DNA of 64,000 bases from Escherichia phage IME267. The position numbers and the translations under genes were made by a program. This document shows, in pieces, positions 23,907 to 61,379 of the stretch (within the stretch, counting starts at the first letter, position 1; every line of letters starts with the position of its first letter). The stretch is from sequence record NC_070983.1; one strand, 5' to 3'. A model generated the notes under the pieces. That model did no database searches, was not told the origin of the DNA, and saw only the letters and a list, made by a program, of their open reading frames with translations.

Positions 23907-24049
23907 TCTCGTATGTGTCCTCATAATATGAATAGTTGAAGGATTCAGCTTTCGTTTCAGCCTCCTCCATATCATCTGTTTCCAGAATAACTTTCCAGCC
24001 AAAACCTTCAGGATACTCAGCTCCTTCATCTAGCCAGACTTTATATCGT

Positions 24050-24535
24050 TTAGATTGAAGAGACATGCTCTTGCTCCTTCTCTTGTCTACACTTGGCAGC
24101 CTCTTCTAAAGTGTCAAAGGTTCCTAAGTATAAGGTCTTCCCTTGAATAAATATATTTGCAATGTATCGGCCTTTGCTTAAGTAGACACCCTTAACTCCA
24201 GACCTGTTATTTGAGTTGAGTCCTTTGTTCCAAGAGTTTACTTCATTGGTCACAAGACGAAGGTTAGAAAGTCTATCATCCAGTGGGTTTCGGTTGATGT
24301 GATCAATCTGAGTTTCCGGAAAAGTTCCGTGCTTTAAACACCAGATAACTTGATATCTTCTAAAAGTAAAACCTTGACAGCAGAGTTTCCATCTTCCGAG
24401 GGAGTCGATACACCCTGCTTCATCTCCTGCCCTGATTTTAGTCCCTCTTCGAACTTTCCAGTATACTTGACCTGTTTCAAAATTGGCTTCAAAGAAGTCA
24501 TGTATGATTTTAGATTTTACATCCTTCGCAATCAT
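24050..24535 (-). CDS. HNH homing endonuclease with AP2-type DNA-binding domain
   Basis: …IDHINRNPLDDRLSNLRLVT… (HNH) and …SGVKGVY…GRYIANIFIQGKTLYLGTFDTLEEAA… (AP2); GGAGG RBS. Confidence 0.65.
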   Translation of the reverse strand: MIAKDVKSKIIHDFFEANFETGQVYWKVRRGTKIRAGDEAGCIDSLGRWKLCCQGFTFRRYQVIWCLKHGTFPETQIDHINRNPLDDRLSNLRLVTNEVNSWNKGLNSNNRSGVKGVYLSKGRYIANIFIQGKTLYLGTFDTLEEAAKCRQEKEQEHVSSI

Positions 24536-25448
24536 CAAGACCTCCAAGTAAAGACAAGGACAGTAAGCGAGACTGTTCATCCGATACTAACGTATCAACC
24601 TCTTCTTTCAGAGCCATAAGCTCAACAAAAGTTAACAGTTCATGTCGGTCAGCAATCACTTGGTATTTGTAGTCATTGATATGTGGTGCGCTTTGTACAA
24701 TGTAAATATTAGACATTATAAAATCTCCCTTTGTTTAGCATTAATGACTGACATTGCTGTGATTGGGTTGTTTGTTCCGAGATACTCCAGAACAGGTGGA
24801 CTACTTGCTGGTTTACCAGCCTCTATATAATTCTTAACCTTACCACCAAGAACTGCCAGAGAAGCCTGAGCTTCTGCCTCATCAGTATGAACTCGGTCAA
24901 CTACTTTCTTTCCAATCTTATAAGTATGAACCCAAATCATTTAACTTCCTCAATATCAACTAATTCAAAACTTCCTATTTCTTCAAGCTTAATAATCTCT
25001 TTAACCTTCTCAACAGCTTTAATAGGGTTTTCTTCTTCTACAACTTTACACCCTGATACTTCAAGACTGCCTGTTCCACGAAGGTATAAATTCAACTTAT
25101 AAACTACTTTGTAGTATTTCATCGTGCTCCCAATTTCTTTCATAATATCCAGAGTTGTAGTTTAGGGCGCATTTCTCGGCCTCTTCTATGTCGTCTGTGT
25201 TTAGGATATTAACCCAACCACCAACTTCATCAAAACCCTCTTCTACCTCATTGAACCACACGCTGTATTTCTTCATCTTGATAAGACCCTTCCCCAATCC
25301 TTGATGTAACATCGACCATCAACCCACTTGGTCTCTGATTTAAACTCTTGAGAGATTCTTGTTTCACAGTCTTCTTTACTGTAATCACCAAGAGCATCCA
25401 TCACCCAAAGAAACAGAGCAATTACAATAGACCAGATTAGAAACTTCT

Positions 25449-25841
25449 TCATCGTATCACCAGAGGCTCTTCAGAGTACACAGGAGAGGTTATTTCTACC
25501 GGAGGTGCTGCTCTAAGGTCATTAAGCCTTACGCCCTTCAGCATACCATCTAGGTGGTCCATTTTAGGGATACCTACAGGGAAGTCATCAATCCAAACAT
25601 CCACAAAGAAACCCAAGCTCTGAGTGACGGAATCCTTCTGAACACCATTGCAAAAGATAACAGGAATATCTAGACTTGCTGCATCTGCTAGAAGCTCCTC
25701 ATTTGAATACCCATTAGGTTGAGCAAAACGATAGGTGACAATACGTACATCATGTCCACGAGATTTCATAAGACCTACAATGTGGGTCCACATCTCTTTG
25801 TCCACTGTAAAAGTATCATCATAATCTAAACCAATATTCAT
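25449..25841 (-). CDS. HAD-family phosphatase-like protein (possible nucleotidase)
   Basis: N-terminal …IGLDYDDTF… fits the DxDxT motif. Confidence 0.35.
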   Translation of the reverse strand: MNIGLDYDDTFTVDKEMWTHIVGLMKSRGHDVRIVTYRFAQPNGYSNEELLADAASLDIPVIFCNGVQKDSVTQSLGFFVDVWIDDFPVGIPKMDHLDGMLKGVRLNDLRAAPPVEITSPVYSEEPLVIR

Positions 25842-25855
25842 ATTAGCCTCTTAGA

Positions 25856-25882
25856 CAAGAAAAGCCACCCGAAGGTAGCTTA
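25856..25882 (-). terminator. Intrinsic terminator on - strand (AGCUACC-UUCG-GGUGGCU + U-rich)
   Basis: Stem with one GU pair, UUCG loop, TTTCTTG after. Confidence 0.5.
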
Positions 25883-26815
25883 TTTATTCTGTGTTTCCAG
25901 TTCGCTGATACGAACTTTCAAACCGTTAATCTCAGCCTGAGCAGCTTCTAGTTTAATTAGAGCTTCTTCAGCGTCAGCTTCTGTTTGAAGAACCGCAGTG
26001 GTTAGTTCGTATAAAGCTTGGCGGAGAGAATCTTTTCCCATAGCATGAATCTGTGCAACAAAGAATTGCTTACCTTCCGTGGTTTCCAAAGTCTCTTTTA
26101 ATTCTTTAGATGTTAAAATCATCATTACTCCCTTTCATAAATTTTAAGAACTGTACCGCCATCTGCTTCAATCTGAGCAACTACTTCATCGCGCTCTTCA
26201 TCAGAATAAACCAGTTGGTTGTGAAATTTGCCTGTACTATCTTGGAAATACACATTCCATTTTGGAGCAGGTTTACGAATCAAATCCATCATTGATCTTT
26301 CTCCTCTCGTTCAACCCATGTATGGAAAAGCTCCCCATACACTTTGGCATCATCAAAACGTCCTTCTTCCTGTGCGAGTTTTTGTTGCTTCAAGCACCAT
26401 TCAGAACTTTTTACTTCTTCCACTTCCTTGTCTCCTTAAAAAGAACTAATCAATAAGACTAGTTCATTTCGTAATACGATTCAGCTCTTCCACTGAACTA
26501 ATCACTACTTCTCCACCACAAAGAGGTTAACTTCAATGAAAGTTTCGTATTGTGTTGACTCCTGCTTACGGGTGTAGTAGAAATGACGACCTTCTAATGC
26601 ACCTCCGTACTGAGTGGCACATCTTTTAACCATCTCTTTTATCACATCTACAACTGATTCGCCTTTCCACGGACGTAACCCCTGAGTTGGGACTTTTGCT
26701 GTACAGGTTACTTGTGTGTAACCTACATCTTGTAGAGATATCTCAAGAATCAGCTTTGCCCAAGCATCAAAATTAAGCTTGGGGTTATATTTAACTTCAG
26801 TTTTGATATCAATCA

Positions 26816-28663
26816 TTAGTGAGTATGATTCCAGTTTAATCCAATCTTACAATCTGATGCAAGAGGACATTCCATCTTGAGGTATTCCCCTGCTTTACGA
26901 ACACATTCTTCAGTGAGGGTACGAAGTTTGTTAACATCATCACGATGTACAGTGAACTGTCCTTCATCATGCATGTCAATAACCTTCGCACAACGAACAC
27001 CATCCCGCTCAATCCATTTATTGAGGAATAGCATTGCATACTTCATAACAATCGCCCCAGCGCTCTGTAAGAGTGTATTTAAGGCTTTATGGACCATAAC
27101 CTTTCCAGTTGCATCTCTTCTCATTGTAATACGACGTCCATCCACACCGTAGATGTATCCACTTTGCGCTTTCTCTGTCATACGTTCAATAAGGATTGCA
27201 ATACAAGGGTTCTCTGCTAAGAATCTTGCTCTCATGATAGCCCCTTCGTCAGAGCCACCACCTACAATACTTCCTAACTTAGCGTCACCTGCCCCATAGT
27301 TAAAGGCATATATAAACGTCTTAGCGTTATCACGAGTAGGAAGACCAGCAAGTTTTTGGTTATGTGAGTGAATGTCTCCTTCTAAAAGAATATCTCTGTA
27401 CATAACAGCAGAAGCTAGACCACGTTCAGCTTCTCGTTTCTTAGCCGGGTTGTTTTCTCGCTCTGCTTCAGCGAGCATCTCACGACATTCTTTAATAAGG
27501 TAGTGAGCTAGCATCCTCAGCTCAAGACCAGAGCCATCGTAACCTAAGAAGATTTCACGACCAGCAGGAACATAGAACTTATAGGCACCTACAGGTTTGT
27601 CTTTCTTGCCCGGTTTTCCCACTTCGTAGATAATGTTAGTACCCTTTCGTACGTAACACCCATCAGGGATATGGTTGGTAATGATGAAAGGATGGTTATG
27701 ACTATCGTCTGAGGAATAGTCAGATTGAAAAAGACTGCGGCACTCGTGACCAAACAAACCGCGAGAAGGAATATTAACAACAATGCGATGTTTAAAACGA
27801 AATGTCGGAGTAGCGCAGCTATTAGCTTCGGCGGACAACTTACCATCTTTACGTTCCTTGTCGATAAGCCCGCTAATCAAACCTAGCCTGTGAGCCGCTA
27901 CAACGCGTCTCTTAAGCAAACTTCCTACACCCCCTAGCTCACCCCCAAGCCCCTCTTCAAGAGTCTCCTCAAGGTTTGTAGGGGCTGTGGGCCACTTGTT
28001 TGATGTAGCCAAAGCTTTTTTGATTTCATCAAAGGTTACAGGTTTCTTCCTATTCGGATTAAGACCTAAACCACTGACGTAGGCTTTCATGTAGTTGACA
28101 GTGTGATAACGGAAATGTTTATCCAAAAATCTTCGGATATCAGCATCTATCATCTCCGCTGTCTGTTTCTCTTTAGCATTACCTCGAATCCAAGCAGAAT
28201 ACCATGCAGAGTATGTACCATACTTCTTCATAGCTCTACGGATTTCAAATGTATTCCAAGGTTTCTTAGAATAATTCCACTCTGGAGGTATGAAGCCCTC
28301 ATCCATCAAGGCTTCTTTAATACGTGCATCTTTCGATGGGTCGAAGTCTACATACTCAACGCAAGTAAACGCCCCACCGATATCTTCTCTTTTAAGACCA
28401 ACCCTATCGCAATAGAGCTGAGGCCACTTCTGTAAAGCACCTGATTTCTTAAAAGGCTTAGCATAAGTTGAACCATCCACCCGCATTTTAGGGAGGAGAG
28501 GAATCAGTTCTTTATCAATATTGACAATAATCTCTTTGAGAAGGTGAACAAACCACCGAGCGTTTCTTCTGTTGAAGTTGACTCCATGCTTCGCTTGTTT
28601 TGAGATTATATCAGCGACTGTCATCTCCGTTATGAAAGGTAACTTATCAGGGTTATCCATCAC
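26816..28663 (-). CDS. DNA polymerase, family A polymerase domain (no exonuclease domain in this ORF)
   Basis: Motif A …DGSGLELRMLAHY…, motif B …NAKTFIYAFNYGAG…, motif C …MHDE…. Confidence 0.85.
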   Translation of the reverse strand: MMDNPDKLPFITEMTVADIISKQAKHGVNFNRRNARWFVHLLKEIIVNIDKELIPLLPKMRVDGSTYAKPFKKSGALQKWPQLYCDRVGLKREDIGGAFTCVEYVDFDPSKDARIKEALMDEGFIPPEWNYSKKPWNTFEIRRAMKKYGTYSAWYSAWIRGNAKEKQTAEMIDADIRRFLDKHFRYHTVNYMKAYVSGLGLNPNRKKPVTFDEIKKALATSNKWPTAPTNLEETLEEGLGGELGGVGSLLKRRVVAAHRLGLISGLIDKERKDGKLSAEANSCATPTFRFKHRIVVNIPSRGLFGHECRSLFQSDYSSDDSHNHPFIITNHIPDGCYVRKGTNIIYEVGKPGKKDKPVGAYKFYVPAGREIFLGYDGSGLELRMLAHYLIKECREMLAEAERENNPAKKREAERGLASAVMYRDILLEGDIHSHNQKLAGLPTRDNAKTFIYAFNYGAGDAKLGSIVGGGSDEGAIMRARFLAENPCIAILIERMTEKAQSGYIYGVDGRRITMRRDATGKVMVHKALNTLLQSAGAIVMKYAMLFLNKWIERDGVRCAKVIDMHDEGQFTVHRDDVNKLRTLTEECVRKAGEYLKMECPLASDCKIGLNWNHTH

Positions 28664-29033
28664 CCACTCCTTATAGTTATTGGTATATTAAGTCTGTGAA
28701 TGCTTGGTTGTCTTCAACAATATCTAAAGCTTCATATGAATCAGCCAATTCATCCACATAAAAGACTGCTGGAATATCTTCTGCTCGCTGTCTACGAGAT
28801 TCCCTTTGTTCATTGATATTTCTTTGAACCTGTGCAAGTTTCATACCCCACACCTGATCATACAACTCTGGATATTTGTCACTAACCACTACATAATTTC
28901 GAGCTGGTTGGTTTCTATTAATCTTCGCTGTCAACTCAATAAACTGGCGAAACTCTTGAATAGAGAGGTTGTCATGAATATTATCCCATTTGAGAACGCA
29001 GTGACGTTCTAGGCGTTGAGGTACTGGCATAAC

Positions 29034-29303
29034 TTACTCCACTGTCGGGAATGGTTTTAGGTTGTTCATGGCTGTACGAACATCAGCACAGATTTCAGGA
29101 TCACGATAAGAGAGGAATTTACCATCCTTACCACGAATCATTACATTAGTCCGTGCTGTTTTATTAGGCAATAAAGAAATCCCTCCAATAAGATGGTTGG
29201 TAGGGTGTTGTCCTTGATTAACCTTGTAGTCATGAGTCTGAGCGTCACCATTAAAGAGATGATCACGAATTTGGATTAAGCTAATCTTCATATTATGCAC
29301 CAA
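29034..29303 (-). CDS. Hypothetical protein, tandem paralog of 29293..29580
   Basis: Shared …TARTNV(M/A)(I/L)RG(K/P)DGKF(L/I)S(Y/F)RD…NLKPFP…. Confidence 0.4.
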   Translation of the reverse strand: MVHNMKISLIQIRDHLFNGDAQTHDYKVNQGQHPTNHLIGGISLLPNKTARTNVMIRGKDGKFLSYRDPEICADVRTAMNNLKPFPTVE

Positions 29304-29580
29304 AGTTAGGGAAAGGTTTCAGATTTTCAATAGACTTAGCAATACGCTTAGGAACAGCCTTATCACGGAAGGAGATGAACTTTCCATCAGGACCACGAAG
29401 GGCTACATTAGTACGAGCTGTTGTTTTGTTAAACTGAATCATCTCAACAGAGCTTGTAACATTTTCTACAGGAAAAGTATAGCTCTCAGTTGTGTTCAGA
29501 GAAGGGAGGAAATCAGTTACAGTGATGTAAGTTACTTTAGACATATTTATTACCTTAGGTTCTATAAAAGAAAAGGCCAC
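29293..29580 (-). CDS. Hypothetical protein, tandem paralog of 29034..29303
   Basis: Same conserved blocks as neighbour. Confidence 0.4.
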   Translation of the reverse strand: MAFSFIEPKVINMSKVTYITVTDFLPSLNTTESYTFPVENVTSSVEMIQFNKTTARTNVALRGPDGKFISFRDKAVPKRIAKSIENLKPFPNFGA

Positions 29581-29596
29581 CCGAAATGGGTAGCCT
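29564..29596 (-). terminator. Intrinsic terminator on - strand (GGCUACCC…GGGUGGCC + U-rich)
   Basis: 8-bp stem with one GU pair followed by TTTTCTTTT. Confidence 0.5.
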
Positions 29597-29600
29597 TATA

Positions 29601-29915
29601 TCAACTTGAGCTTAAAGCTCCTTTGCGACCGCCTGCTGATTTTCCAGCACGATCTCCACTTTTGCCGCCGTTCGAGCGATTTCGAGAGACTGATTCAACA
29701 CGTAAGTTACTTGACGCATTAGAACCTCCCGACTTGATTGATCGTTTGTGTCCAACATCTTTACCTCGGACAGCAGCTTTTCCATCGCGCTTTTCAACGA
29801 TGCGACGTGCACGGTGGCGCTGAGCATCTCCGCTCTTGCTACCAACGCCGGTCTCACCCCTTGCGATTGCAGTTCTTCGTTCTTGTGCATAATCACGTTT
29901 CGCCTTATCGGTCAT
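29601..29915 (-). CDS. Small basic Gly/Lys/Ser-rich protein resembling KGG-repeat stress proteins
   Basis: AAGGAG RBS before ATG; …RAGKSAGGRKG… repeats; an alternative 94-aa frame (29612..29896) overlaps. Confidence 0.3.
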   Translation of the reverse strand: MTDKAKRDYAQERRTAIARGETGVGSKSGDAQRHRARRIVEKRDGKAAVRGKDVGHKRSIKSGGSNASSNLRVESVSRNRSNGGKSGDRAGKSAGGRKGALSSS

Positions 29916-29962
29916 CATAACTCCTTAATATATCAGTGTACACTAAGGAGTATACATTATGT

Positions 29963-30700
29963 TTATGATTTTTCAGATTCCATTGCTTTAACAATAGCTT
30001 TACAGAAACCTGAACGAACAATATCATCTGATTCGCCATCTACTAGAGCGGCAAATTCAAATAACTGGTGACGGTAGATGAAATCAGTAGCCCAATCAAG
30101 ACCGCTCTCACCACGCATGTCGTGCTGGTTAGTGTCCCCCATGCAGAACATCTGAGAGGTTTCACCAAGACGTGTCATGATTGAATATGCTTCATCAGGA
30201 GTAGTGTTCTGGAACTCATCAACAATCACGATAGCATCATTGAACGAGCGACCACGTAGATATTCCAGAGGTACGAACTCAATATTACCATTACCTACTT
30301 GACATTCGTAGAAACCTTTACCGTAGCGCTGAGTAATAACATCAACGATTGGCATTAGGTATGGTTCAAACTTCTCACGAAGCCCACCGGGAAGTAATCC
30401 AAGACTATTACCCATACCAACAGCAGGTCGGCTTAGGATAATCTTCTCAATCTTCCCACTCTTCAGAGCATCAATCACTGTAGAAGTGATTACGAAGGTC
30501 TTACCACAACCAGCAGGAGCATCTGTGAATACAACCTGTTTGGTTTTAATTGCATCAAGCAGCTCACTCTGGAATTGGTTCTGAGGTACTACCGGCTTAG
30601 CAAGAACTACTTCTTCAAATTCCCGCTTTCCTTTCTTGGTGACGAGAGCTTCACGACGTAATTCTCTCCGTGATGCTTTCCGAGATTCTCTACGACTCAT
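29963..30700 (-). CDS. phoH: PhoH-like ATPase
   Basis: Walker A …DAPAGCGKTFV… and conserved …ILSRPAVGMGNSLGLLPGGL…. Confidence 0.8.
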   Translation of the reverse strand: MSRRESRKASRRELRREALVTKKGKREFEEVVLAKPVVPQNQFQSELLDAIKTKQVVFTDAPAGCGKTFVITSTVIDALKSGKIEKIILSRPAVGMGNSLGLLPGGLREKFEPYLMPIVDVITQRYGKGFYECQVGNGNIEFVPLEYLRGRSFNDAIVIVDEFQNTTPDEAYSIMTRLGETSQMFCMGDTNQHDMRGESGLDWATDFIYRHQLFEFAALVDGESDDIVRSGFCKAIVKAMESEKS

Positions 30701-30878
30701 TTCCTACCTCCGTGTTCTTCATATAAGAAGCTACAGGATTTACACTCTGAGCAATGGATACCTATAACCTTAATTTCGACAAACTTCTTATTCTTCCCTT
30801 TAGTCGGGGAGCCTTTGGCAAGCTCCCGTATTACTTTCGAGTCCAAATGGAGAAGAGTTGATTCACATTTAAAACATT

Positions 30879-31199
30879 TCAGATTGATTTGTCCTTATGT
30901 AAACGGTATACTTCAGTAGCCATACAAGCTATACGCTCGTCATGTGGGAGATGCATACCAGTAGAGCCGTTCCATCCTTCGAACTCTGAATCAAAGAATC
31001 CAATAGGCTCGGGATACATCTCTTGCAAGGTGGTTAAGTCATCAGCCACTTGTTGCCACTTATCGTCAGACCAGATTGGGTCATCCAACCAATAATACAA
31101 ATAGGAGTGGATAAGCATCTGTGTTCTATGTCGTTTAATCACTTCAGCAGGACTGATTTCATTTCCGTTACCAGTCCTAAATGTATTATTGTTGATCAT
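30879..31199 (-). CDS. Hypothetical protein, weak resemblance to NAD-dependent ligase domain Ia
   Basis: …LIHSYLYYWLDDPIWSDDKWQQVADDL…MYPEP… pattern; tentative. Confidence 0.2.
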   Translation of the reverse strand: MINNNTFRTGNGNEISPAEVIKRHRTQMLIHSYLYYWLDDPIWSDDKWQQVADDLTTLQEMYPEPIGFFDSEFEGWNGSTGMHLPHDERIACMATEVYRLHKDKSI

Positions 31200-31675
31200 T
31201 CCAAAACCCTTTCTTCTAAATCATAAAAGATTTGATTTGTCCCATTATTCTCAACAAGCGCTGTTCCATTATCTAGCAGGGTAGCAACTTGGGAATAAGG
31301 AATGTTCTTTAACATCAGAGCATTAATGGTCGGCTTGTTTTTGAAGTAAGCGACAGGCTCAACATAGAAGGAAATCCCACGACTTCCTTTAATTGGGGTG
31401 CTTGAAGATAGAACCCAAATTGTTTCTGGCTTGTCTATTTCCTTTTCAACACCAACCTCAACAAGAGAGTCAGCAGCGAAACCTACAGGACGCCTAGAAG
31501 AACCAAGCAACCGAACATATCCCGGTAATTTTGACATATTAGACCAACTACCAGTGTTTTCATTAAACACAGGTCTTACATCACCATATGCCCAAACCAG
31601 ATTATCATAGTCACGGGCTATGTATTTAACCCAATCAGGAACATCATACTCCCTTCCTTCAAAAATAGCTTTCAT
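31196..31675 (-). CDS. Hypothetical protein
   Basis: 159-aa ORF coupled to neighbours. Confidence 0.35.
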   Translation of the reverse strand: MKAIFEGREYDVPDWVKYIARDYDNLVWAYGDVRPVFNENTGSWSNMSKLPGYVRLLGSSRRPVGFAADSLVEVGVEKEIDKPETIWVLSSSTPIKGSRGISFYVEPVAYFKNKPTINALMLKNIPYSQVATLLDNGTALVENNGTNQIFYDLEERVLE

Positions 31676-31847
31676 TTAGATAACCTTGTGCTTATAGATG
31701 TTAGGGTTGTAGTAATGCAACCAGTTTATGTATTGCTTCTGTTCGAGGTAGTGCCTGCAATCATGACAAAAAGCATGACCCAAACCTGTTTCCTCGTTCA
31801 GCTTGAAATTGATAAGAAGCTTCTGCTTTCGACAGAAGCTACATGCT

Positions 31848-32498
31848 TTAGTGGGCTTCACGTAATGCATCCCAAGAGATTGGATATATTTTACGAAGCT
31901 CTTCATCAATGGTTGATGCGAACACTCGTACTTCGTACTGAGCATGGTCTGACAGTCGCTGACGACACAACTCTGACCAACCATATAGAGAACCGGTCCA
32001 TACCCACTCAGTGATCATACCCTGAGGTAATACGAATCGAGCTTGTTCTGGAGCAATAAACTTAATCAACTCATCATATGACTCAAGAGCTGTTTCATAT
32101 GCCCGATTAATCAGAACTAGTGCAGAGTTTTGCGCTCCTGTGGTGAGGAGATTCCCTGCACCTGCATGGAGGTCCGAAGGTCTTTCAAAAACCTCTTTAG
32201 GGATGAAGAGTTCAACTGCTCCATCTTTATACCTCCGGGACATTTCGTTCCACGAGAATCCAACTTGATGCTTGCCCAGCTGTCTCGCAATTGCGATTGG
32301 CGCTTTGCATCGGAAGCTAATTGTCGGATGGCGGAATGGTGTGACATGCTTTTCTCTGGCAAGGAACTTGATAAGGCGTTCATCTCGTTCATTTAACTCT
32401 CCTTCACGAGTAACCCCAAAGGAAACTCGAGCTGCATTAACAACAGATTTATCAGAACCCATTGCTTCAATTAGTGTTGCTTGTAATTGTTCGTTCAT
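31848..32498 (-). CDS. thyX: Flavin-dependent thymidylate synthase (ThyX family)
   Basis: …VVNAARVSFG…HVTPFRHP…KHQVGFSWNEMSRRY… matches ThyX conserved blocks. Confidence 0.75.
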   Translation of the reverse strand: MNEQLQATLIEAMGSDKSVVNAARVSFGVTREGELNERDERLIKFLAREKHVTPFRHPTISFRCKAPIAIARQLGKHQVGFSWNEMSRRYKDGAVELFIPKEVFERPSDLHAGAGNLLTTGAQNSALVLINRAYETALESYDELIKFIAPEQARFVLPQGMITEWVWTGSLYGWSELCRQRLSDHAQYEVRVFASTIDEELRKIYPISWDALREAH

Positions 32499-50190: not shown

Positions 50191-50354
50191 AACTTCTCCT
50201 GTTTGTCACATTGATTGGTTAGCCAGTTGTAAGACCCACTGTTGTTCTTGCTTAACTCGCAAGATGCAAAAGAGTACATCCTGACAAACCCCACAGTGGC
50301 TAAGCAAATAAAGATTGCTGCCAATAAGAATTTAGCTTTCAACTTATTATCCAT
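50187..50354 (-). CDS. Small signal-peptide protein (55 aa), not in the ORF track
   Basis: Translated by hand: MDNKLKAKFLLAAIFICLATVGFV…; AAGAAGAGG RBS; ATGA coupling to next gene. Confidence 0.35.
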   Translation of the reverse strand: MDNKLKAKFLLAAIFICLATVGFVRMYSFASCELSKNNSGSYNWLTNQCDKQEKL

Positions 50355-50372
50355 ACAACCTCTTCTTTGAGC

Positions 50373-50400
50373 TTAAAAAAGGACTCTCCTAAGAGAGCCA
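50373..50400 (-). terminator. Terminator-like hairpin on - strand followed by U6
   Basis: GGCTCTC-TTAG-GAGAGTCC then TTTTTT on - strand. Confidence 0.4.
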
Positions 50401-50489
50401 AGCTTTAAGGCCAATTAAATAGATATCACCCAATATCTGTGGATAACCTGCTCTTAAAATATTCTATCCGACGGATGTTCGAGGATTAT

Positions 50490-50600
50490 TCCTCTCCCTA
50501 GCATCGGCCCCATACGGGAAAGATTAAATTAAGTTTAGGTTAGTTGAGCCAGAATAGCTCACATAGCCCTCTGATACTCACAAGGGCTATAGATGTTACT
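50490..50600. repeat. Copy 1 of ~110-nt repeated element with conserved hairpin, immediately 3' of paralog gene 50596..50844
   Basis: Blocks tctccctagc…tagttgagtgag…ctcacATAGCCCTctgatactcacaAGGGCTATa…gatgttact shared with 56030..56150. Confidence 0.6.
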
Positions 50601-50844
50601 CTGTGGCTCCGTCGAATCGGAGGATTGCTGCTGGAACAGGGTATACTTCCAGATCTTCATCCAGTCGGTATAGATGCCCTGTACTTAAATTTACAGCTGT
50701 TACTGGCTTAGAGTGGCCTCCAGCCTGTATGGAAGGAACTCTGATAAAGAACTCTTCTGGATATTCAACAGAGTGGAACACACTTCCTGAATAAAGATCT
50801 TTTATTTTAGAAGTTTGTTTAGGAGTTTTATCAGCAATTTTCAT
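50596..50844 (-). CDS. Small protein, L-x-x-G-(D/E/S)-x-F paralog family
   Basis: …IKDLYSGSVFH…YPVPAAI…. Confidence 0.45.
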   Translation of the reverse strand: MKIADKTPKQTSKIKDLYSGSVFHSVEYPEEFFIRVPSIQAGGHSKPVTAVNLSTGHLYRLDEDLEVYPVPAAILRFDGATE

Positions 50845-52490: not shown

Positions 52491-53323
52491 TTTACCACCT
52501 TTAGTTATGGACCAAATAGAATTATTAAAGAGTGCACTAGCTCTGGGCCACGTTGTGAACATCGGCCTACCTTTCACAACTAATCAACTAATGCACTCAT
52601 TAATAGCTTATCTACTCCAATAAAATAGGGGGAGGGGACGAATCCTCCCATATCCTATTAATTAATATTGCATGTAAGACCTAACAATCCGATGCTGTAG
52701 TGGATAGCGTAAAACGCTTACCGGCATTAAACCCAGCCCATGAGGGGCTTATGTGAATAAAATGCTCAACATTGAGCGGTTAGTTGATAGGAGACCTGAA
52801 GTCCTATCTCAAAGGACTCTCGTAAGAATCCTTCACGATATTACTTAGTAATAAAGACTGTCATCTTGTCCAACACCCACTCTAACAGGAGCATGAAAGG
52901 GATGAGTAAGAGGAATAATAACAAAATAGGCCAGAAGAATATTGCTATCCAGATAGAACATTCATCAGGCTTACCACTCCACGGGTTGTGGAAGAAGTTA
53001 TAGAACGTATTGGTTTTGAAGCACCACTTAACTACGATGGCTGCTAACCACCAACCAATAACATAAATCAGGAAGACATACGATGCTGTAACCATTGACC
53101 ATTCCATTGATAGTTGCGAGTGACCACGTTTCCGTGGATAAGAAAGTGCTGGCGGCGAAGGATATCTTTAACGTTGTAATAGGCAGCGTTTCCGATATGA
53201 CCTTCTTTGATAAGCCAGCGCAGGTTACGAATATCAACCAACAACATCTTTACTTGCTGTTGGCATGAAGTTTGAGCTGCTGTTTCAAGCAGAGATTTCG
53301 TATCAGAATAATGACCAGACATA

Positions 53324-53763: not shown

Positions 53764-53839
53764 TGGTGCACCCTACAGGACTCGAACCTGTAACCAACGA
53801 CTTAGAAGGTCGCTGCTCTGTCCGTTGAGCTAAGGGTGC
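53764..53839 (-). tRNA. tRNA-Arg(UCU): tRNA-Arg (anticodon UCU), 76 nt with encoded CCA
   Basis: Hand-folded cloverleaf: 7-bp acceptor stem, D arm, anticodon loop CTTCTAA, T arm ACAGG-TTCGAGT-CCTGT, 3' ACCA. Confidence 0.8.
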
Positions 53840-55469: not shown

Positions 55470-55510
55470 CTTAATTAAAACAACAAAGGCCACCCCTAAG
55501 GGCAGCCTCT
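55470..55510 (-). terminator. Terminator-like hairpin on - strand with U-rich tail
   Basis: GGCTGCCC-TTAG-GGGTGGCC (two GU pairs) then TTTGTTGTTTT. Confidence 0.4.
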
Positions 55511-56029
55511 TATTTAAGCGCAAGCACTACGCAGTTTGTTATTCAAGAAGCGATCTTCTGCATTATACAGGAATGCATAGAACAACTCTTTTGCTACATC
55601 CCGATCGCAATTGAGACATTTAGAGATCTGTAACAACAAACCATCACGACTATTAGGATGGTCAATTATCGCAAGACGAATAATCTCACGAATACCAATG
55701 TCATGCTCAGCCGCCATAGAACCAATCACCCTGACGTTTACGAATGTTAGTTGTCAGACGAAGCATGGCAGACTCAATCTTCAGAGCACCATTTGCTACT
55801 GCATCCATACGTTCAGGACGGTTCATACGTTTGGTTGTCTTTTTCATAATGTTCTCTCTTTATTGATGGAGGCAGGATTGCCAGTTGATATAAAGGGAAG
55901 CCCTACACGTTAAGGCTTCCGCTTGTACAAACTGTCGAGAACTCTCTACCCCTAGATTGTTCTCTATCCCAAACCGATACATACCCCTACATATCGGAAT
56001 GCCATTCGAAAATTAACAGGTTTTAGTCT

Positions 56030-56150
56030 ATCACCGGATGTTTGAGACAAGTCTCTCCCTAGCGGTGAGCCATATGGCGTTGAGATTATAGTTAATTGAG
56101 GAACATCCTCACATAGCCCTCTGATAAACACAAGGGCTATAAGTCGATGT
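56030..56150. repeat. Copy 2 of ~110-nt repeated element with conserved hairpin, immediately 3' of paralog gene 56150..56374
   Basis: ctcacATAGCCCTctgataaacacaAGGGCTATa differs from copy 1 at only 2 loop positions. Confidence 0.6.
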
Positions 56151-56374
56151 TACTTGTTGGTTAGTCGTGCGTTAGGTACAGGTCTGACTACAGTCGATTT
56201 ACACTCAGAATCACGCTTACCTGTATAAAGGTTAACAAAATAACTTTTGTTTTCACCATAACACGCAGTACGCATGTAATATTGAGTTTCGTTATAGTTA
56301 AACTGGAAGACTTCACCCGGATTTAGATCACCGAGAGTTACAATCTCTGGTGTATTATCGATATCAATTTTCAT
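56150..56374 (-). CDS. Small protein, L-x-x-G-(D/E/S)-x-F paralog family
   Basis: …TLGDLNPGEVFQF…VRPVPNA…. Confidence 0.45.
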   Translation of the reverse strand: MKIDIDNTPEIVTLGDLNPGEVFQFNYNETQYYMRTACYGENKSYFVNLYTGKRDSECKSTVVRPVPNARLTNK

Positions 56375-57268: not shown

Positions 57269-57655
57269 TCAGTCACGGGAGCTATTATTGAACACTAAAT
57301 CACCACAATACATCGGATTGGTATACCACTTTGGCACCCCTTCGCTCTTACTCTGAAAGTATGTACCGCTGTACAAAGGCACATAACCTTTCTTCAGTGC
57401 ACGCCTTGCAAGCCGCTCGCTCTCTCTGATTGATTTCTTTATCAGAGGGTTATCATCACGAATTAGCTTTACATAACGCTTAAAAGGTTTCTCCTTCTTT
57501 AATAGGACGGGTATCCACTCGAACTGGTTTCGTTGATTTATAACCTGCTCGGCAGTCAGTTTTCGTTGTGACATTCTGTTTATTACGGTATCCGCTACTA
57601 ATGCTTTGCAAGCGGTTGGCTGATTCCCTGCCTCATAATAAATAGTCAATGTCAA
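57269..57655 (-). CDS. SleB/CwlJ-like cell-wall hydrolase domain protein
   Basis: …YYEAGNQPTACKALVADTVINRM…NQFEW…GYVPLYSGTYFQ… resembles the Hydrolase_2 family. Confidence 0.45.
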   Translation of the reverse strand: MTLTIYYEAGNQPTACKALVADTVINRMSQRKLTAEQVINQRNQFEWIPVLLKKEKPFKRYVKLIRDDNPLIKKSIRESERLARRALKKGYVPLYSGTYFQSKSEGVPKWYTNPMYCGDLVFNNSSRD

Positions 57656-57707: not shown

Positions 57708-57734
57708 TAAAAAAGCCCCATCCGAAGACGGGGC
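57708..57734 (-). terminator. Strong intrinsic terminator on - strand (8-bp stem, UUCG loop, U6)
   Basis: GCCCCGTC-TTCG-GATGGGGC followed by TTTTTT on - strand. Confidence 0.65.
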
Positions 57735-57892
57735 GACCTGAAAAGTGAACATGACTTCACTCATTTAAGAACCCTCTCAAAGACTCTTAAAAAAGAGGCC
57801 TCGTTAAAGGCCCGGTCAAATGACCATCCAATAGGGATTGAACCATGCCAATGATTCACAAAGGGAGTTCCCTTTAGGCATCACTAGCTACG

Positions 57893-57914
57893 AAAAAAGC
57901 CGCACAAAGGCGGC
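57893..57914 (-). terminator. Intrinsic terminator on - strand (GCCGC-CTTTGT-GCGGC + U6)
   Basis: Read directly; second terminator in the same 290-nt intergenic region. Confidence 0.5.
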
Positions 57915-57971
57915 AGACAAAGACGCTCAAGAAGAGCGTCATAGTAGTTGACCACTGGTACAGAAGAGGGC

Positions 57972-58916: not shown

Positions 58917-59245
58917 TTGCGAAGCCCTAACTTACGAAGTAGACGACCTAACTTAGTTTCCTGCGTAATGGTGTAGGTAACAGAGTTTTCGATTAACGCT
59001 TGTTCTTGAATCGGCGACGGATACCATTCACCGGTAAGGATGCATTTGCATTCGATTCCATATCTATCGGTTTTACGATAGGTCATATTGTTTAAGATAT
59101 TACGATACATCTTAACTTCTGTTTTCAATTTTGGCATGGTGATCATCTCTTTTTAGTTTCTTTGATTAGCACACTGAATCAATGCACTAGTAAAAGAAAA
59201 GGCGCTACCCTTTCGAATAGCGCCTTACTTGTTCTTTATTGTGGG

Positions 59246-60157: not shown

Positions 60158-61066
60158 CTTTCAACTGTAAGGGCACTATGCCCCGCTCTCTATGAGCTTT
60201 TTAAGTCACTATTGACTTATCAATAATCACTCAATATCAAGTAATTATTGATAAGCGAGGCGGTCTTATCAGGAGTTAACCTTGCCGCCTCCTTATCCGT
60301 GATGTTTCATCTGGTATCTTTAATTAGTCGCTATAAATAAAGCCGACCTGATAGCGATGATCAATCATCACAATAAGGCAGTGCGTCCGACTCTATTTAA
60401 TTACTTTATCGTAACCGTCGGCAATATCGTCTACTTTGCTTTCGCTCCCGCCTATCCTTTTGTACTAACTCTCAATCGCTAACCATCGCCCACTACGGGA
60501 GGTTATTGCGAAAGAGTCATTAGCCGTCTAATACATTGACGTTTTATATCTTTCAGCAGGTTTACTACATAAACTGATTATGTACGCCATCAATAGTGGC
60601 CTCAAATCATTCACATCGTAAACGTTCACACTAAACCTTATTGTTAAATAGCAATTTGCCACTTTTTAACCATTCACCGCCGCCCCCAATTGAGCGTTAA
60701 TTCTTCGGGCTTGCCTACCCTGATTAACTTCTTTCACTGTAGCGCCTTGTTAGCGATGACCGCCGCTACCCTTAACCGTGGGCGATTAGCTTAAGTCTTT
60801 GCGTACACTCAATGAATCCGTTTATCAGTGGTGACGTTTCCAGCAAGGGATTATAAGATTGTTTTCTCTGATAGTTTAGAGAATCTTACACCGTTTTATC
60901 TGGTATGTTATCCGATGGTTATTATCATCTAACATATTCAACCGATATAGGAGAATGTTTAAATTATTAAAGAGCGGTAAATCTATCAGTGTACTTTCTC
61001 ACACTATGCAACTGTTAGCCGTTGTTACGCTTTTCACTGAAGCGGTGATTTGCTTAGTGAGTGCTC

Positions 61067-61095
61067 ATTATGAATCATGTTGTTTTCGCTGTCAA
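61067..61095 (-). promoter_or_regulatory. Near-consensus sigma70-type promoter on - strand (TTGACA-17-CATAAT)
   Basis: -35 TTGACA (rc of 61090-61095), 17-nt spacer, -10 CATAAT (rc of 61067-61072). Confidence 0.5.
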
Positions 61096-61379
61096 CCACT
61101 TTTTAATCTTTTTTCGTCGTTCCCGCTATTGGGAGGATATATCAATCAGCTTTATTTGATTGAAGACTAAGCGGTGATGCTTATCTTATGATTCATATTG
61201 TTAAAGAGCGGTTACTACATTTACAGCTTAACACATCGTGTTAGCTTGTCAAACTCTTTTTATCATCTTCTTTTAATTCCTTTCCCTTATCTCGCGTGAA
61301 TCTATGCGAAAGGGCAAGATGATAAGTTTTTAAAGAGCGGGATATTTCACGTCATCGCTGACTATGCTCACTATATATC

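Follow-up and report, generated by a model that had tools for sequence, protein, structure and literature searches.

Paralogous structured RNAs at two gene junctions of the early region in phiEco32-like phages, with a possible control function in cis

Escherichia phage IME267 (sequence record NC_070983.1), of which a stretch of 64,000 nucleotides (nt) was analysed and is called the window here, carries on its minus strand two long intergenic spacers which the comparative evidence shows to be ancient paralogous copies of one structured RNA domain in an early operon read by the host RNA polymerase. Element A (50355-50603) extends from the 5' strand of its first helix, P1a, which overlaps the stop codon of a gene for a protein of 82 amino acids (aa), to the base before the ATG at 50354, and element B (55848-56152) from the stop codon of a 74-aa gene to the base before the ATG at 55847; features described below lie on the minus strand unless stated otherwise. 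The RNA family is new in that it is absent from Rfam and from the literature searched, while its kind, a structured cis-acting or non-coding RNA in a phage operon, is known. The favoured explanation, which is given a probability of about 0.35, is that A and B are leader or intercistronic control RNAs that act in cis and whose invariant internal loop would dock a factor provided in trans.

Comparative evidence for one RNA domain in two copies

Covariation was assessed in a set of 39 distinct sequences with 24 pairs and 900 pair cells. Standard pairs account for 99.2% of the cells, 9 of the 24 pairs show double-sided changes, and the covariation score of 0.336 compares with 0.132 in shuffles, none of 500 of which reached it, and with at most 0.07 when the partners are slid. 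Once diverged members are added, double changes are seen in 15 of the 24 pairs (0 of 500 shuffles) and 98-99% of the cells pair. This pairing depends on the strand, with 893 of the 900 cells paired on the sense strand, 96 of them as G.U, as against 799 on the antisense strand. Such strand-specific compensatory and wobble changes imply selection on a folded single strand and not on a duplex sequence, and a role at the level of RNA, one of the candidates proposed from the window alone, is thereby supported by compensatory changes and G.U pairs that are workable on the sense strand only.

The core common to A and B is made up of the helices P1a and P1, the tiny hairpin P2, and P3 and P4, which enclose a 7x7 internal loop with CUAGGG(A/C) on one side and (G/A)AACAUC on the other. 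Twelve of the 14 loop bases are invariant in the 39 distinct sequences. The two loop positions flanking P4 co-vary (A:G in 24, C:A in 12, A:A in 3, never C:G), a pattern of substitution which, judged by published isostericity rules, fits a non-Watson-Crick pair of the sheared type. P3 exists in at least six complementary versions (CCGAUG/CGUCGG, UCACCG/CGGUGA, UCGGUG/CGCCGA, AAUAGCG/CGCUAUU, CAGCG/CGCUG and CAACG/CGUUG), and the stem of P2 covaries as well (CCC/GGG, GCC/GGC, GGC/GCC), with 100% of its cells paired and the loop RUAU common to A and B. Taken with the tiny P2, the non-Watson-Crick covariation suggests that the RNA has a compact tertiary fold or forms a platform for binding a macromolecule.

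The original prediction had placed an element of about 110 nt, with a near-identical hairpin, at 50490-50600. Its inverted repeat, ATAGCCCT-N12-AGGGCTAT, does occur exactly twice in the 64 kb, at 50563-50590 and 56113-56140 (with three or fewer mismatches allowed, only 2 of 100 shuffles gave two or more matches), and the hairpins follow stop codons closely, starting 5 nt (A) and 9 nt (B) past a TAA. It was also right that no U tract comes after the hairpin, which is P1 in the present nomenclature: GUGAGC.. follows in A and GUGAGG.. in B, and the terminator scan does not list P1. The folding and covariation check that had been suggested identifies this hairpin as one helix of a structure of 150-300 nt with strong covariation. 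The limits had been drawn too narrowly, as the conserved unit is the whole intergenic spacer, each of which ends in another hairpin, and both the most conserved part, an internal loop about 60 nt downstream of the hairpin, and the terminator of A had been missed. Likewise, an identity of about 95% over about 110 nt is not found, the 111-nt span being 69% identical; near-identity applies to a 34-nt block only (50558-50591 versus 56108-56141, 94% identical). Between A and B, identity is 69% for the cores (152 and 143 nt) and 56% for the whole spacers, the latter being the same as the nucleotide identity of the two upstream genes (55.6%). As the spacers are as diverged as these genes, the blocks shared by A and B are near-identical islands within a diverged background. 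A second common box, GCTAGGGAGAG-N-CTC-N-AACATCCG (as RNA, GCUAGGGAGAG..CUC.AACAUCCG), is exact in both copies, at 50472-50502 and 56035-56063, and is matched in 0 of 100 shuffles.

A search for further copies in related phages, also proposed at the outset, found both elements in about 100 phiEco32-like genomes and the core in other groups. There are 103 phage records with A and 97 with B, and the two syntenic positions are the same throughout; in phiEco32 they lie between genes 91/90 for A and between genes 113/112 for B. Each Gordonclarkvirinae genome gives exactly two strong matches to the covariance model R1, which was made from 16 copies; in the window these are 50458-50609 for A (138 bits; fold z-score -3.1) and 56021-56163 for B (116 bits; fold z-score -3.3). 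A forms one conserved block in 97 of its 103 records, with the blastn homology of distant phages restricted to 50359-50602, and 96 of the 97 records with B cover at least 80% of the element. Because A and B are each orthologously kept in about 100 genomes, they do not stem from a recent segmental duplication, which the original prediction had named as its own refutation. Selection on the element itself, as claimed, is borne out by the comparison of the lineage of the window with Kuravirus, in which A is 84-87% and B 80-85% identical at the nucleotide level while amino-acid identity is about 41% for the 405-aa protein encoded downstream of A and the flanking genes no longer align by blastn.

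Outside this subfamily, the Salmonella phages 7-11 and pSal-SNUABM-01, both Grimontviridae, have A immediately before the endolysin gene and lack B. R1 also finds diverged cores in Citrovirus-type phages (Zobellviridae), namely in the contig L058 at 63.6 bits, in Klebsiella phage Klyazma at 34 and in CVT22 at 26; in these P3 is entirely resubstituted and the loop is kept. L058 (JBOFGJ010000684.1) is filed as "Flavobacterium sp. MAG", and encodes a 446-aa protein with 41% identity to a protein of Citrobacter phage CVT22. A further contig, L061 ("Peptococcaceae MAG"), carries the element at 152 bits, like a Kuravirus copy. Both are probably phage contigs mis-binned into bacterial metagenome-assembled genomes (MAGs). 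Privateervirus phages of Proteus and Cronobacter lack the element, no homologue was found in 5426 E. coli genomes, a scan of GTDB genomes returned phage contigs or chance matches only, and pattern scans of metagenomes and IMG/VR led back to the same phage groups. The loop of P1 varies among the phages (12 nt, 6 nt or a UUCG tetraloop), and the sequence of P1 is wholly different in L058, which argues that the functional heart is the core of P2 and P3-loop-P4 and not the hairpin that first drew attention.

The near-identity of that hairpin in the window has another source. In most Kuravirus genomes P1 of A is AUAGCCUUC-(UUCG/CCUCCG)-GAGGGCUAU, P1 of B is nearly invariant everywhere, loop included, and a P1 of the B type in A is restricted to the lineage of the window (SU7, ECBP2, MLP3). 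An exchange between the copies is the simplest explanation for this, and the most likely source of the near-identity in the window phage is recombination between A and B and not additional constraint. Homology breakpoints coincide with the element edges, and junctions to differing upstream genes fall exactly at the 5' edge, so the conserved blocks are regarded as serving as recombination joints too, as a by-product of their conservation. Of the recombination or mobility element considered in the original prediction, what holds is that exchange between copies probably occurred; recombination as the function does not hold, since it looks like a consequence of conservation, and a mobility element does not agree with fixed syntenic positions, two copies per genome and no linked transposase or endonuclease.

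A degenerate third paralogue, called C, is possible but uncertain. It lies in the next long spacer (52726-52854; 15.7 bits, E 0.0085 in 16 kb) and has a gene-end hairpin, UCAACUAACC and UAUCCAC as in A, without the CUAGGG/AACAUC loop. Weak matches recur between A and B in other genomes, apparently at the same position. A terminator-like hairpin (52649-52630) follows C.

No known family accounts for these RNAs. When the whole window was searched against the 4227 families of Rfam 15 at gathering thresholds, only a tRNA at 53767-53839 passed; the two spacers searched at E <= 10 gave sub-threshold matches at chance level only (TarB at 21 bits where 80 are required, STnc100 at 21 where 47 are), and ARAGORN found no tRNA or tmRNA beyond the tRNA-Arg at 53764-53839. 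No paper in the literature searched mentions A or B. The elements were also considered as coding sequence, and this was rejected: open reading frames over them are not conserved (for example 55964-56131), and the alignments contain indels of 1, 2, 4, 7 and 58 nt. Several deposited genomes, among them SU10 (KM044272/NC_027395) and 172-1 (NC_028903), list element A as a coding sequence for a "hypothetical protein" or "membrane protein", and the frame-breaking indels among A orthologues argue that these are false gene calls.

Anatomy of the two elements

Element A begins with the extended hairpin of P1a and P1 (50550-50603). P1a pairs CAGAGUA (50603-50597) with UAUUCUG (50556-50550), and the TAA stop codon of the upstream gene (50598-50596) lies mostly within it. 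P1, AUAGCCCU/AGGGCUAU (50563-50590), is the hairpin of the original prediction and is separated from P1a by an internal loop with GUGAG on the 3' side (50562-50558). Pair changes in P1 run from U-A to A-U and from C-G to U.G, and in P1a of A from UAAC/GUUA through UGAC/GUUA, a G.U intermediate found in KBNP1711, to UGAC/GUCA in EP335. A linker poor in G and rich in A, U and C (..CUCAACUAACCUAAACUUAAUUUAAUCUUU; 50519-50549) follows, which also provides the 5' strands of the two long-range helices that close the core of A, P5 (UAACCU) and P5b (CUUAA..). As read off the alignment, P5b covaries, with UCUUAAUAUAU/AUAUUUUAAGA in Kuravirus versus UCUUUUUA/UAAAGAGA in phage 7-11. P2 is a 3-bp (base pair) hairpin, CCC-GUAU-GGG (50509-50518), set off from P3 by one unpaired base. 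The core arm P3-loop-P4 (50468-50507), which corresponds to the exact common box, consists of P3 (CCGAUG, 50507-50502, with CGUCGG, 50473-50468), the 7x7 internal loop (CUAGGGA, 50501-50495, with GAACAUC, 50480-50474) and P4 (GAGG-AAUAAU-CCUC, 50494-50481).

The 3' strand of P5, AGGUUA, is followed by single-stranded UCCACA(G), and these 12 nt (50438-50449) are kept in every A copy, the Salmonella 7-11 group included. Next comes P6, GAUAUU-GGGU-GAUAUC (50422-50437), a hairpin with a G-rich loop that has no counterpart in phage 7-11. The element ends in an intrinsic terminator found by the terminator scan, GGCUCUC-UUAG-GAGAGUC followed by C and U6 (50375-50399, stem 50382-50399), which as DNA reads GGCTCTCTTAGGAGAGTC and then CTTTTTT from 50399 to 50375 and agrees with the definition of an intrinsic terminator. 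It directly abuts the ribosome-binding site AAAGAAGAGG and the ATG at 50354. The same terminator is annotated as such in SU7, 4E8 and 7-11 and is kept in every A copy aligned, including those of the 7-11 group, in which the endolysin gene comes next; its stem shows a change from G.U to A-U.

In element B, P1a is formed by AACAUC (56151-56146, overlapping the stop codon) and GAUGUU (56107-56102), and is separated from the P1 hairpin (56113-56140) by an internal loop of GACU and GUGAG. One Y:R pair of this P1a (AACAYC/GRUGUU) was tallied by eye in 17 distinct sequences as U-A in 4, U.G in 3 and C-G in 10, never C with A. P2 is GCC-AUAU-GGC (56078-56069) and P3 is UCACCG (56068-56063) with CGGUGA (56036-56031); the internal loop CUAGGGA/AAACAUC and P4, GAGAC-UU-GUCUC, complete the arm within 56031-56078. 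Specific to B are two hairpins predicted by alifold (55937-55997), both with UAGGGG(U)A in the loop: CCGAUAUG-UAGGGG-UAUGUAUCGG at 55974-55997 and AGAGAAC..CUAGGGGUAG..GUUCUC at 55937-55965. According to alifold, their stems carry compensatory changes across B orthologues. They are followed by a long terminal hairpin with a weak U-rich tail (CUUUAUAU; 55896-55920) and by a small hairpin, GGCAAUCCUGCC (55871-55882), after which the ribosome-binding site and the ATG are reached. Elsewhere the terminal hairpin has a 58-nt insertion or lacks the U tract, which implies that termination at B is not conserved.

Scans for sigma-70 promoters gave none inside A or B, and the phage-sigma motif TAATGTATA was found neither in nor near them. 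Hexamers resembling a -10 element after P3 (TAGAAT in A, TGnTAGACT in B) were rejected as promoters, as the one in A is the covarying 3' strand of P5b and there is no -35 element. Within A lies a perfect DnaA box, TTATCCACA (50438-50446), the only perfect one in the 64 kb and kept in every A copy, those of the Salmonella 7-11-like phages included; it overlaps the 3' strand of P5, so constraint on the RNA may explain its conservation. Candidate C contains a DnaA box with one mismatch, TTATTCACA (52752-52760).

A possible role in cis and its rivals

The neighbours of the elements bear on their function. The original prediction had paired each hairpin with one of two paralogous small genes, and the paralogy stands, if weakly: the 82-aa (50596-50844, TAA stop 50596-50598) and 74-aa (56150-56374, TAA stop 56150-56152) proteins are 33% identical (E 1e-4), have PHROGs 6570, 7431 and 7832 in common and belong to a family with at least six members in the early region. 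As fixed partners of the element these genes do not stand, because other phages place different genes against the same element. The downstream neighbour is constant, being the gene for a 46-aa protein after B and the terminator with a small membrane-protein gene after A. A constant downstream and a variable upstream neighbour favour a role in cis toward the downstream genes, as does the conservation of the terminator with A in every lineage that has A, and as does the position of B as the leader of a conserved and very basic protein. No sigma-70-like or phage-sigma promoter motif is found between the terminator of A and the conserved downstream genes. As the terminator abuts the ribosome-binding site and no promoter comes after it, these genes must be expressed by read-through.

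The proposed mechanism would work as follows. P1a and P1 sequester the upstream stop codon and would also serve as a 3' cap or processing point of the upstream cistron, and the domain would act in cis on the genes downstream. A conserved trans factor would dock at the invariant internal loop, with P2 as a buttress; this factor could be the host RNA polymerase, some other protein of the host or one of the phage, for instance the basic 46-aa protein. Its binding would set the amount of RNA that passes through or survives. At A this would amount to control of read-through at the abutting terminator, in the manner of lambda cro - nutR - tR1 - cII, and at B to control of the translation or stability of the message for the basic protein, in the manner of nutL - N. 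Two suggestions of the original prediction are plausible, a protein-binding site, which would be the invariant internal loop, and a processing or stability site, for which the P1 hairpin is a candidate.

Several observations weigh against this explanation. B and the Citrovirus copies have no conserved terminator after them, and transcription from the early promoters meets strong terminator-like hairpins (59226 and 57734-57940) before it reaches B, which implies that read-through occurs without an A/B element upstream. No conserved alternative pairing of terminator and antiterminator is found, the only candidate being 5-6 nt of AAGAGC/GCUCUU which is lost in the 7-11 group. Sequences read by eye show neither a boxA nor a conserved loop of the boxB type, and similarity to put RNA is absent. 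With regard to the trans factor, pSal-SNUABM-01 has a homologue of the 46-aa protein with no B element upstream of its gene, while Citrovirus has the RNA and no detectable homologue; since protein and RNA do not always co-occur, the 46-aa protein was rejected as a universal partner. A bolder form of the explanation, which is rather improbable on the present analysis, holds that the core (P2 and P3-loop-P4) is a new class of nascent RNA that would reprogram the host elongation complex in virulent phages that encode a sigma factor. It might do so alone like put, or with the arginine- and lysine-rich 46-aa protein as a miniature N/nut system in which B would serve in the autoregulation of that protein and A would permit passage through the conserved terminator that gates the downstream block, which contains the endolysin in 7-11-like phages.

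Among the rivals, the elements could be stable non-coding RNAs of 200-350 nt that act in trans, cut from the early transcript to bind or titrate a host protein or to pair with host RNAs, after the model of the CsrB/CsrC-type sponges or 6S RNA; this is doubtful, if still worth considering. It would agree with two paralogues per genome that share an invariant core, with a compact, highly structured form with stable hairpins at both ends, with G-rich loops (UAGGGGUA twice in B, GGGU in A) and with the repetition of UAGGGG loops on covarying stems. A ends with a terminator and U6 after an A/U-rich stretch, a typical 3' module of small RNAs, and the architecture that a candidate Hfq-type small RNA would have is present in A (UAUCCACAG, P6, A/U-rich stretch, terminator, U6) and absent in B. 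The sole near-misses in Rfam are terminator-type small RNAs, TarB and STnc100, and a tRNA gene, necessarily excised, lies in the same operon (53764-53839). Yet the scans located no promoter inside either element, the G-rich loops of A are unlike those of B and are missing from phage 7-11, nothing similar to the element was found in host sequences, and its fixed linkage to the downstream gene suggests a role in cis. A little less probable again is pure intercistronic punctuation for processing or stability, by T7-like RNase III sites or by RNase E cleavage of the linker, with no specific ligand. Protection of the upstream message would then fall to P1 and that of the downstream 5' end to the structured core; the position exactly at cistron ends of a long early polycistronic unit is well suited to such a role. 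P1a (6-8 bp), a 4x5 internal loop and P1 (9-10 bp) form an irregular hairpin of about 20 bp, and this arrangement resembles RNase III substrates; a G-free, A/U-rich linker between two stable structures and a P1 loop that is free to vary, as expected of a structural cap, point the same way. What this leaves unexplained are the 12 invariant loop nucleotides, the non-Watson-Crick covariation and the retention of P2 across three phage families; moreover, the element is found at no more than two or three of the roughly 45 gene junctions in the early region, and in L058 the sequence of P1 is entirely different while the core loop is kept.

The two other rivals are much less probable. Conservation at the level of DNA, with the elements as recombination linkers that shuffle early-gene cassettes, similar to the PeSL (promoter-early stem-loop) cassettes, or as a DnaA-box or origin site, is very unlikely. 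Flanking genes that differ among phages with junctions at the element edges, a hairpin of the B type in A in the lineage of the window, which indicates exchange between copies, and the perfect and universally conserved DnaA box in A would suit it; the changes are however compensatory or wobble changes specific to one strand, the block contains no promoter, and recombination at conserved blocks is an expected by-product. An origin was rejected because a single perfect DnaA box is close to chance, near-matches number 21 with 18.9 expected, and the GC skew has no inflection here. The least probable explanation is a riboswitch-like attenuator, in which an aptamer for a small molecule or ion would govern the terminator of A or translation after B. 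A multi-helix junction with strictly conserved unpaired bases, a terminator just before a coding sequence and the complementarity of AAGAGC in the 3' strand of P5b to GCUCUU in the 5' strand of the terminator would be in keeping with it, but this antiterminator pairing spans only 5-6 nt at a distance of about 45 nt from the terminator and has not been kept in 7-11 and pSal-SNUABM-01, B and the Citrovirus copies lack a terminator, and no Rfam riboswitch matches at E = 10.

Known systems and the early region

Of known systems, the put RNA of phage HK022 is among the closest for control of read-through; it binds the zinc-binding domain of the RNA polymerase beta' subunit and suppresses termination without protein factors. 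The putL and putR sites are cis-acting antiterminator RNAs in which the nascent RNA is folded into conserved stems with internal loops and bulges (PMC9378689). Like put, the elements described here are present as two paralogous copies per genome in early operons read by an unmodified host RNA polymerase, P2 and P3 are adjacent stem-loops one base apart, and A stands just before a terminator that needs read-through. Unlike put, A and B are two to four times longer and lie kilobases from the early promoters, and terminator-like hairpins are found upstream of B too (59226, 57734-57940), past the promoters at 61095, 61398 and 63562. When R1 was run with its filters off on HK022 24000-32000, the best match had 9 bits (E 0.24) and covered a partial hairpin. 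The phage is furthermore virulent and encodes its own sigma factor, and antitermination by A and B is a candidate function only.

The lambda N/nut system is similar in that B lies in the leader of a gene for a small and very basic protein and A between a stop codon and a terminator. The stem of lambda boxB is GCCCU/AGGGC, as in P1 here. In contrast to nut, no boxA (CGCUCUUA-like) is seen next to P1 in the alignments, read by eye, the loop of P1 varies from 4 to 12 nt with no conserved GNRA-like pentaloop, the invariant part is an internal loop elsewhere, and the 46-aa protein, which has no match in Pfam, shows no detectable similarity to N. The RNase III signals of T7 share with the elements an irregular hairpin of about 20 bp with an internal loop, a position at cistron boundaries of an early polycistronic RNA, repetition and the lack of a terminator function; the architecture of such a signal, about two helical turns with an internal loop between cistrons, is present in P1a/P1, both helices of which covary. 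T7 signals are, however, single hairpins of about 60 nt, whereas here the hairpin is the first helix of a domain of 150-300 nt whose most conserved part is elsewhere. The PeSL cassettes of T4-type phages resemble the elements as conserved intergenic stem-loop blocks among variable small early genes with mosaic junctions, but A and B have no sigma-70-like promoter in the block, exist as two copies at fixed loci and covary beyond one stem-loop. Finally, the orphan phage RNA motifs of Rfam are likewise conserved, covarying multi-helix RNAs confined to a phage lineage, though A and B match none of the 4227 families.

The phiEco32-like phages (Kuravirus, Suseptimavirus) are used as therapeutic coliphages and as a model of how a phage sigma factor takes over the host RNA polymerase, and their early region of about 17 kb is almost entirely unannotated. 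The RNA family spans Gordonclarkvirinae, Moazamivirus-type Grimontviridae and Citrovirus (Zobellviridae) and is far better conserved than the surrounding proteins. If the loop does bind RNA polymerase or a global RNA-binding protein, it would provide a new handle on early-gene timing and host takeover; if the elements are mere punctuation of the mRNA, a useful annotation and a ready covariance model would still be gained.

The region studied is 100% identical to Escherichia phage MLP3, and its close relatives, vB_EcoP-101114UKE3, SU7, ECBP2 and NC-B, are phiEco32-like podophages of the Gordonclarkvirinae (Suseptimavirus/Kuravirus). Every gene from about 18 kb to 64 kb is on the minus strand, and 42-64 kb of the window is the counterpart of the "early" region of phiEco32. 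That region is transcribed by the host sigma-70 RNA polymerase (PMC4281155, PMC12276001). The promoter scan finds consensus sigma-70 promoters at 63562-63535, 61398-61370 and 61095-61067, and the same operon holds the tRNA-Arg reported by ARAGORN. A direct repeat of 23 nt (TAAATTATTAAAGAGCGGTAAAT-like), which may be an UP element or an operator, occurs three times on the plus strand (60960-60982, 61194-61216, 61323-61345), beside the consensus early promoters at 61.1-61.4 kb.

The 46-aa protein directly 3' of B (55707-55847, ATG 55847) has a net charge of about +7 and the N-terminus KRMNRPERMD (sequence MKKTTKRMNRPERMDAVANGALK...). It is kept across Gordonclarkvirinae, with a homologue in Salmonella phage pSal-SNUABM-01 (E 6e-8), and a Pfam search gave no match; it is a candidate RNA-binding partner, possibly with an arginine-rich motif.

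On the coding strand between 44 and 64 kb, 28 terminator-like hairpins were found with 13.4 expected, among them 57715-57940, 59199-59226 and 55485-55510. Four are clustered at 57.7-57.9 kb, the one at 59226 has a 12-bp stem, and no obvious promoter comes after any of these. Widespread read-through seems to be needed for early transcription. A 128-aa protein (57269-57655), by eye, presumably resembles the SleB/Hydrolase_2-type endolysin of phage 7-11. The endolysin gene of 7-11-like phages is directly downstream of A, and the look-alike in the window is located upstream of B, after the terminator cluster.

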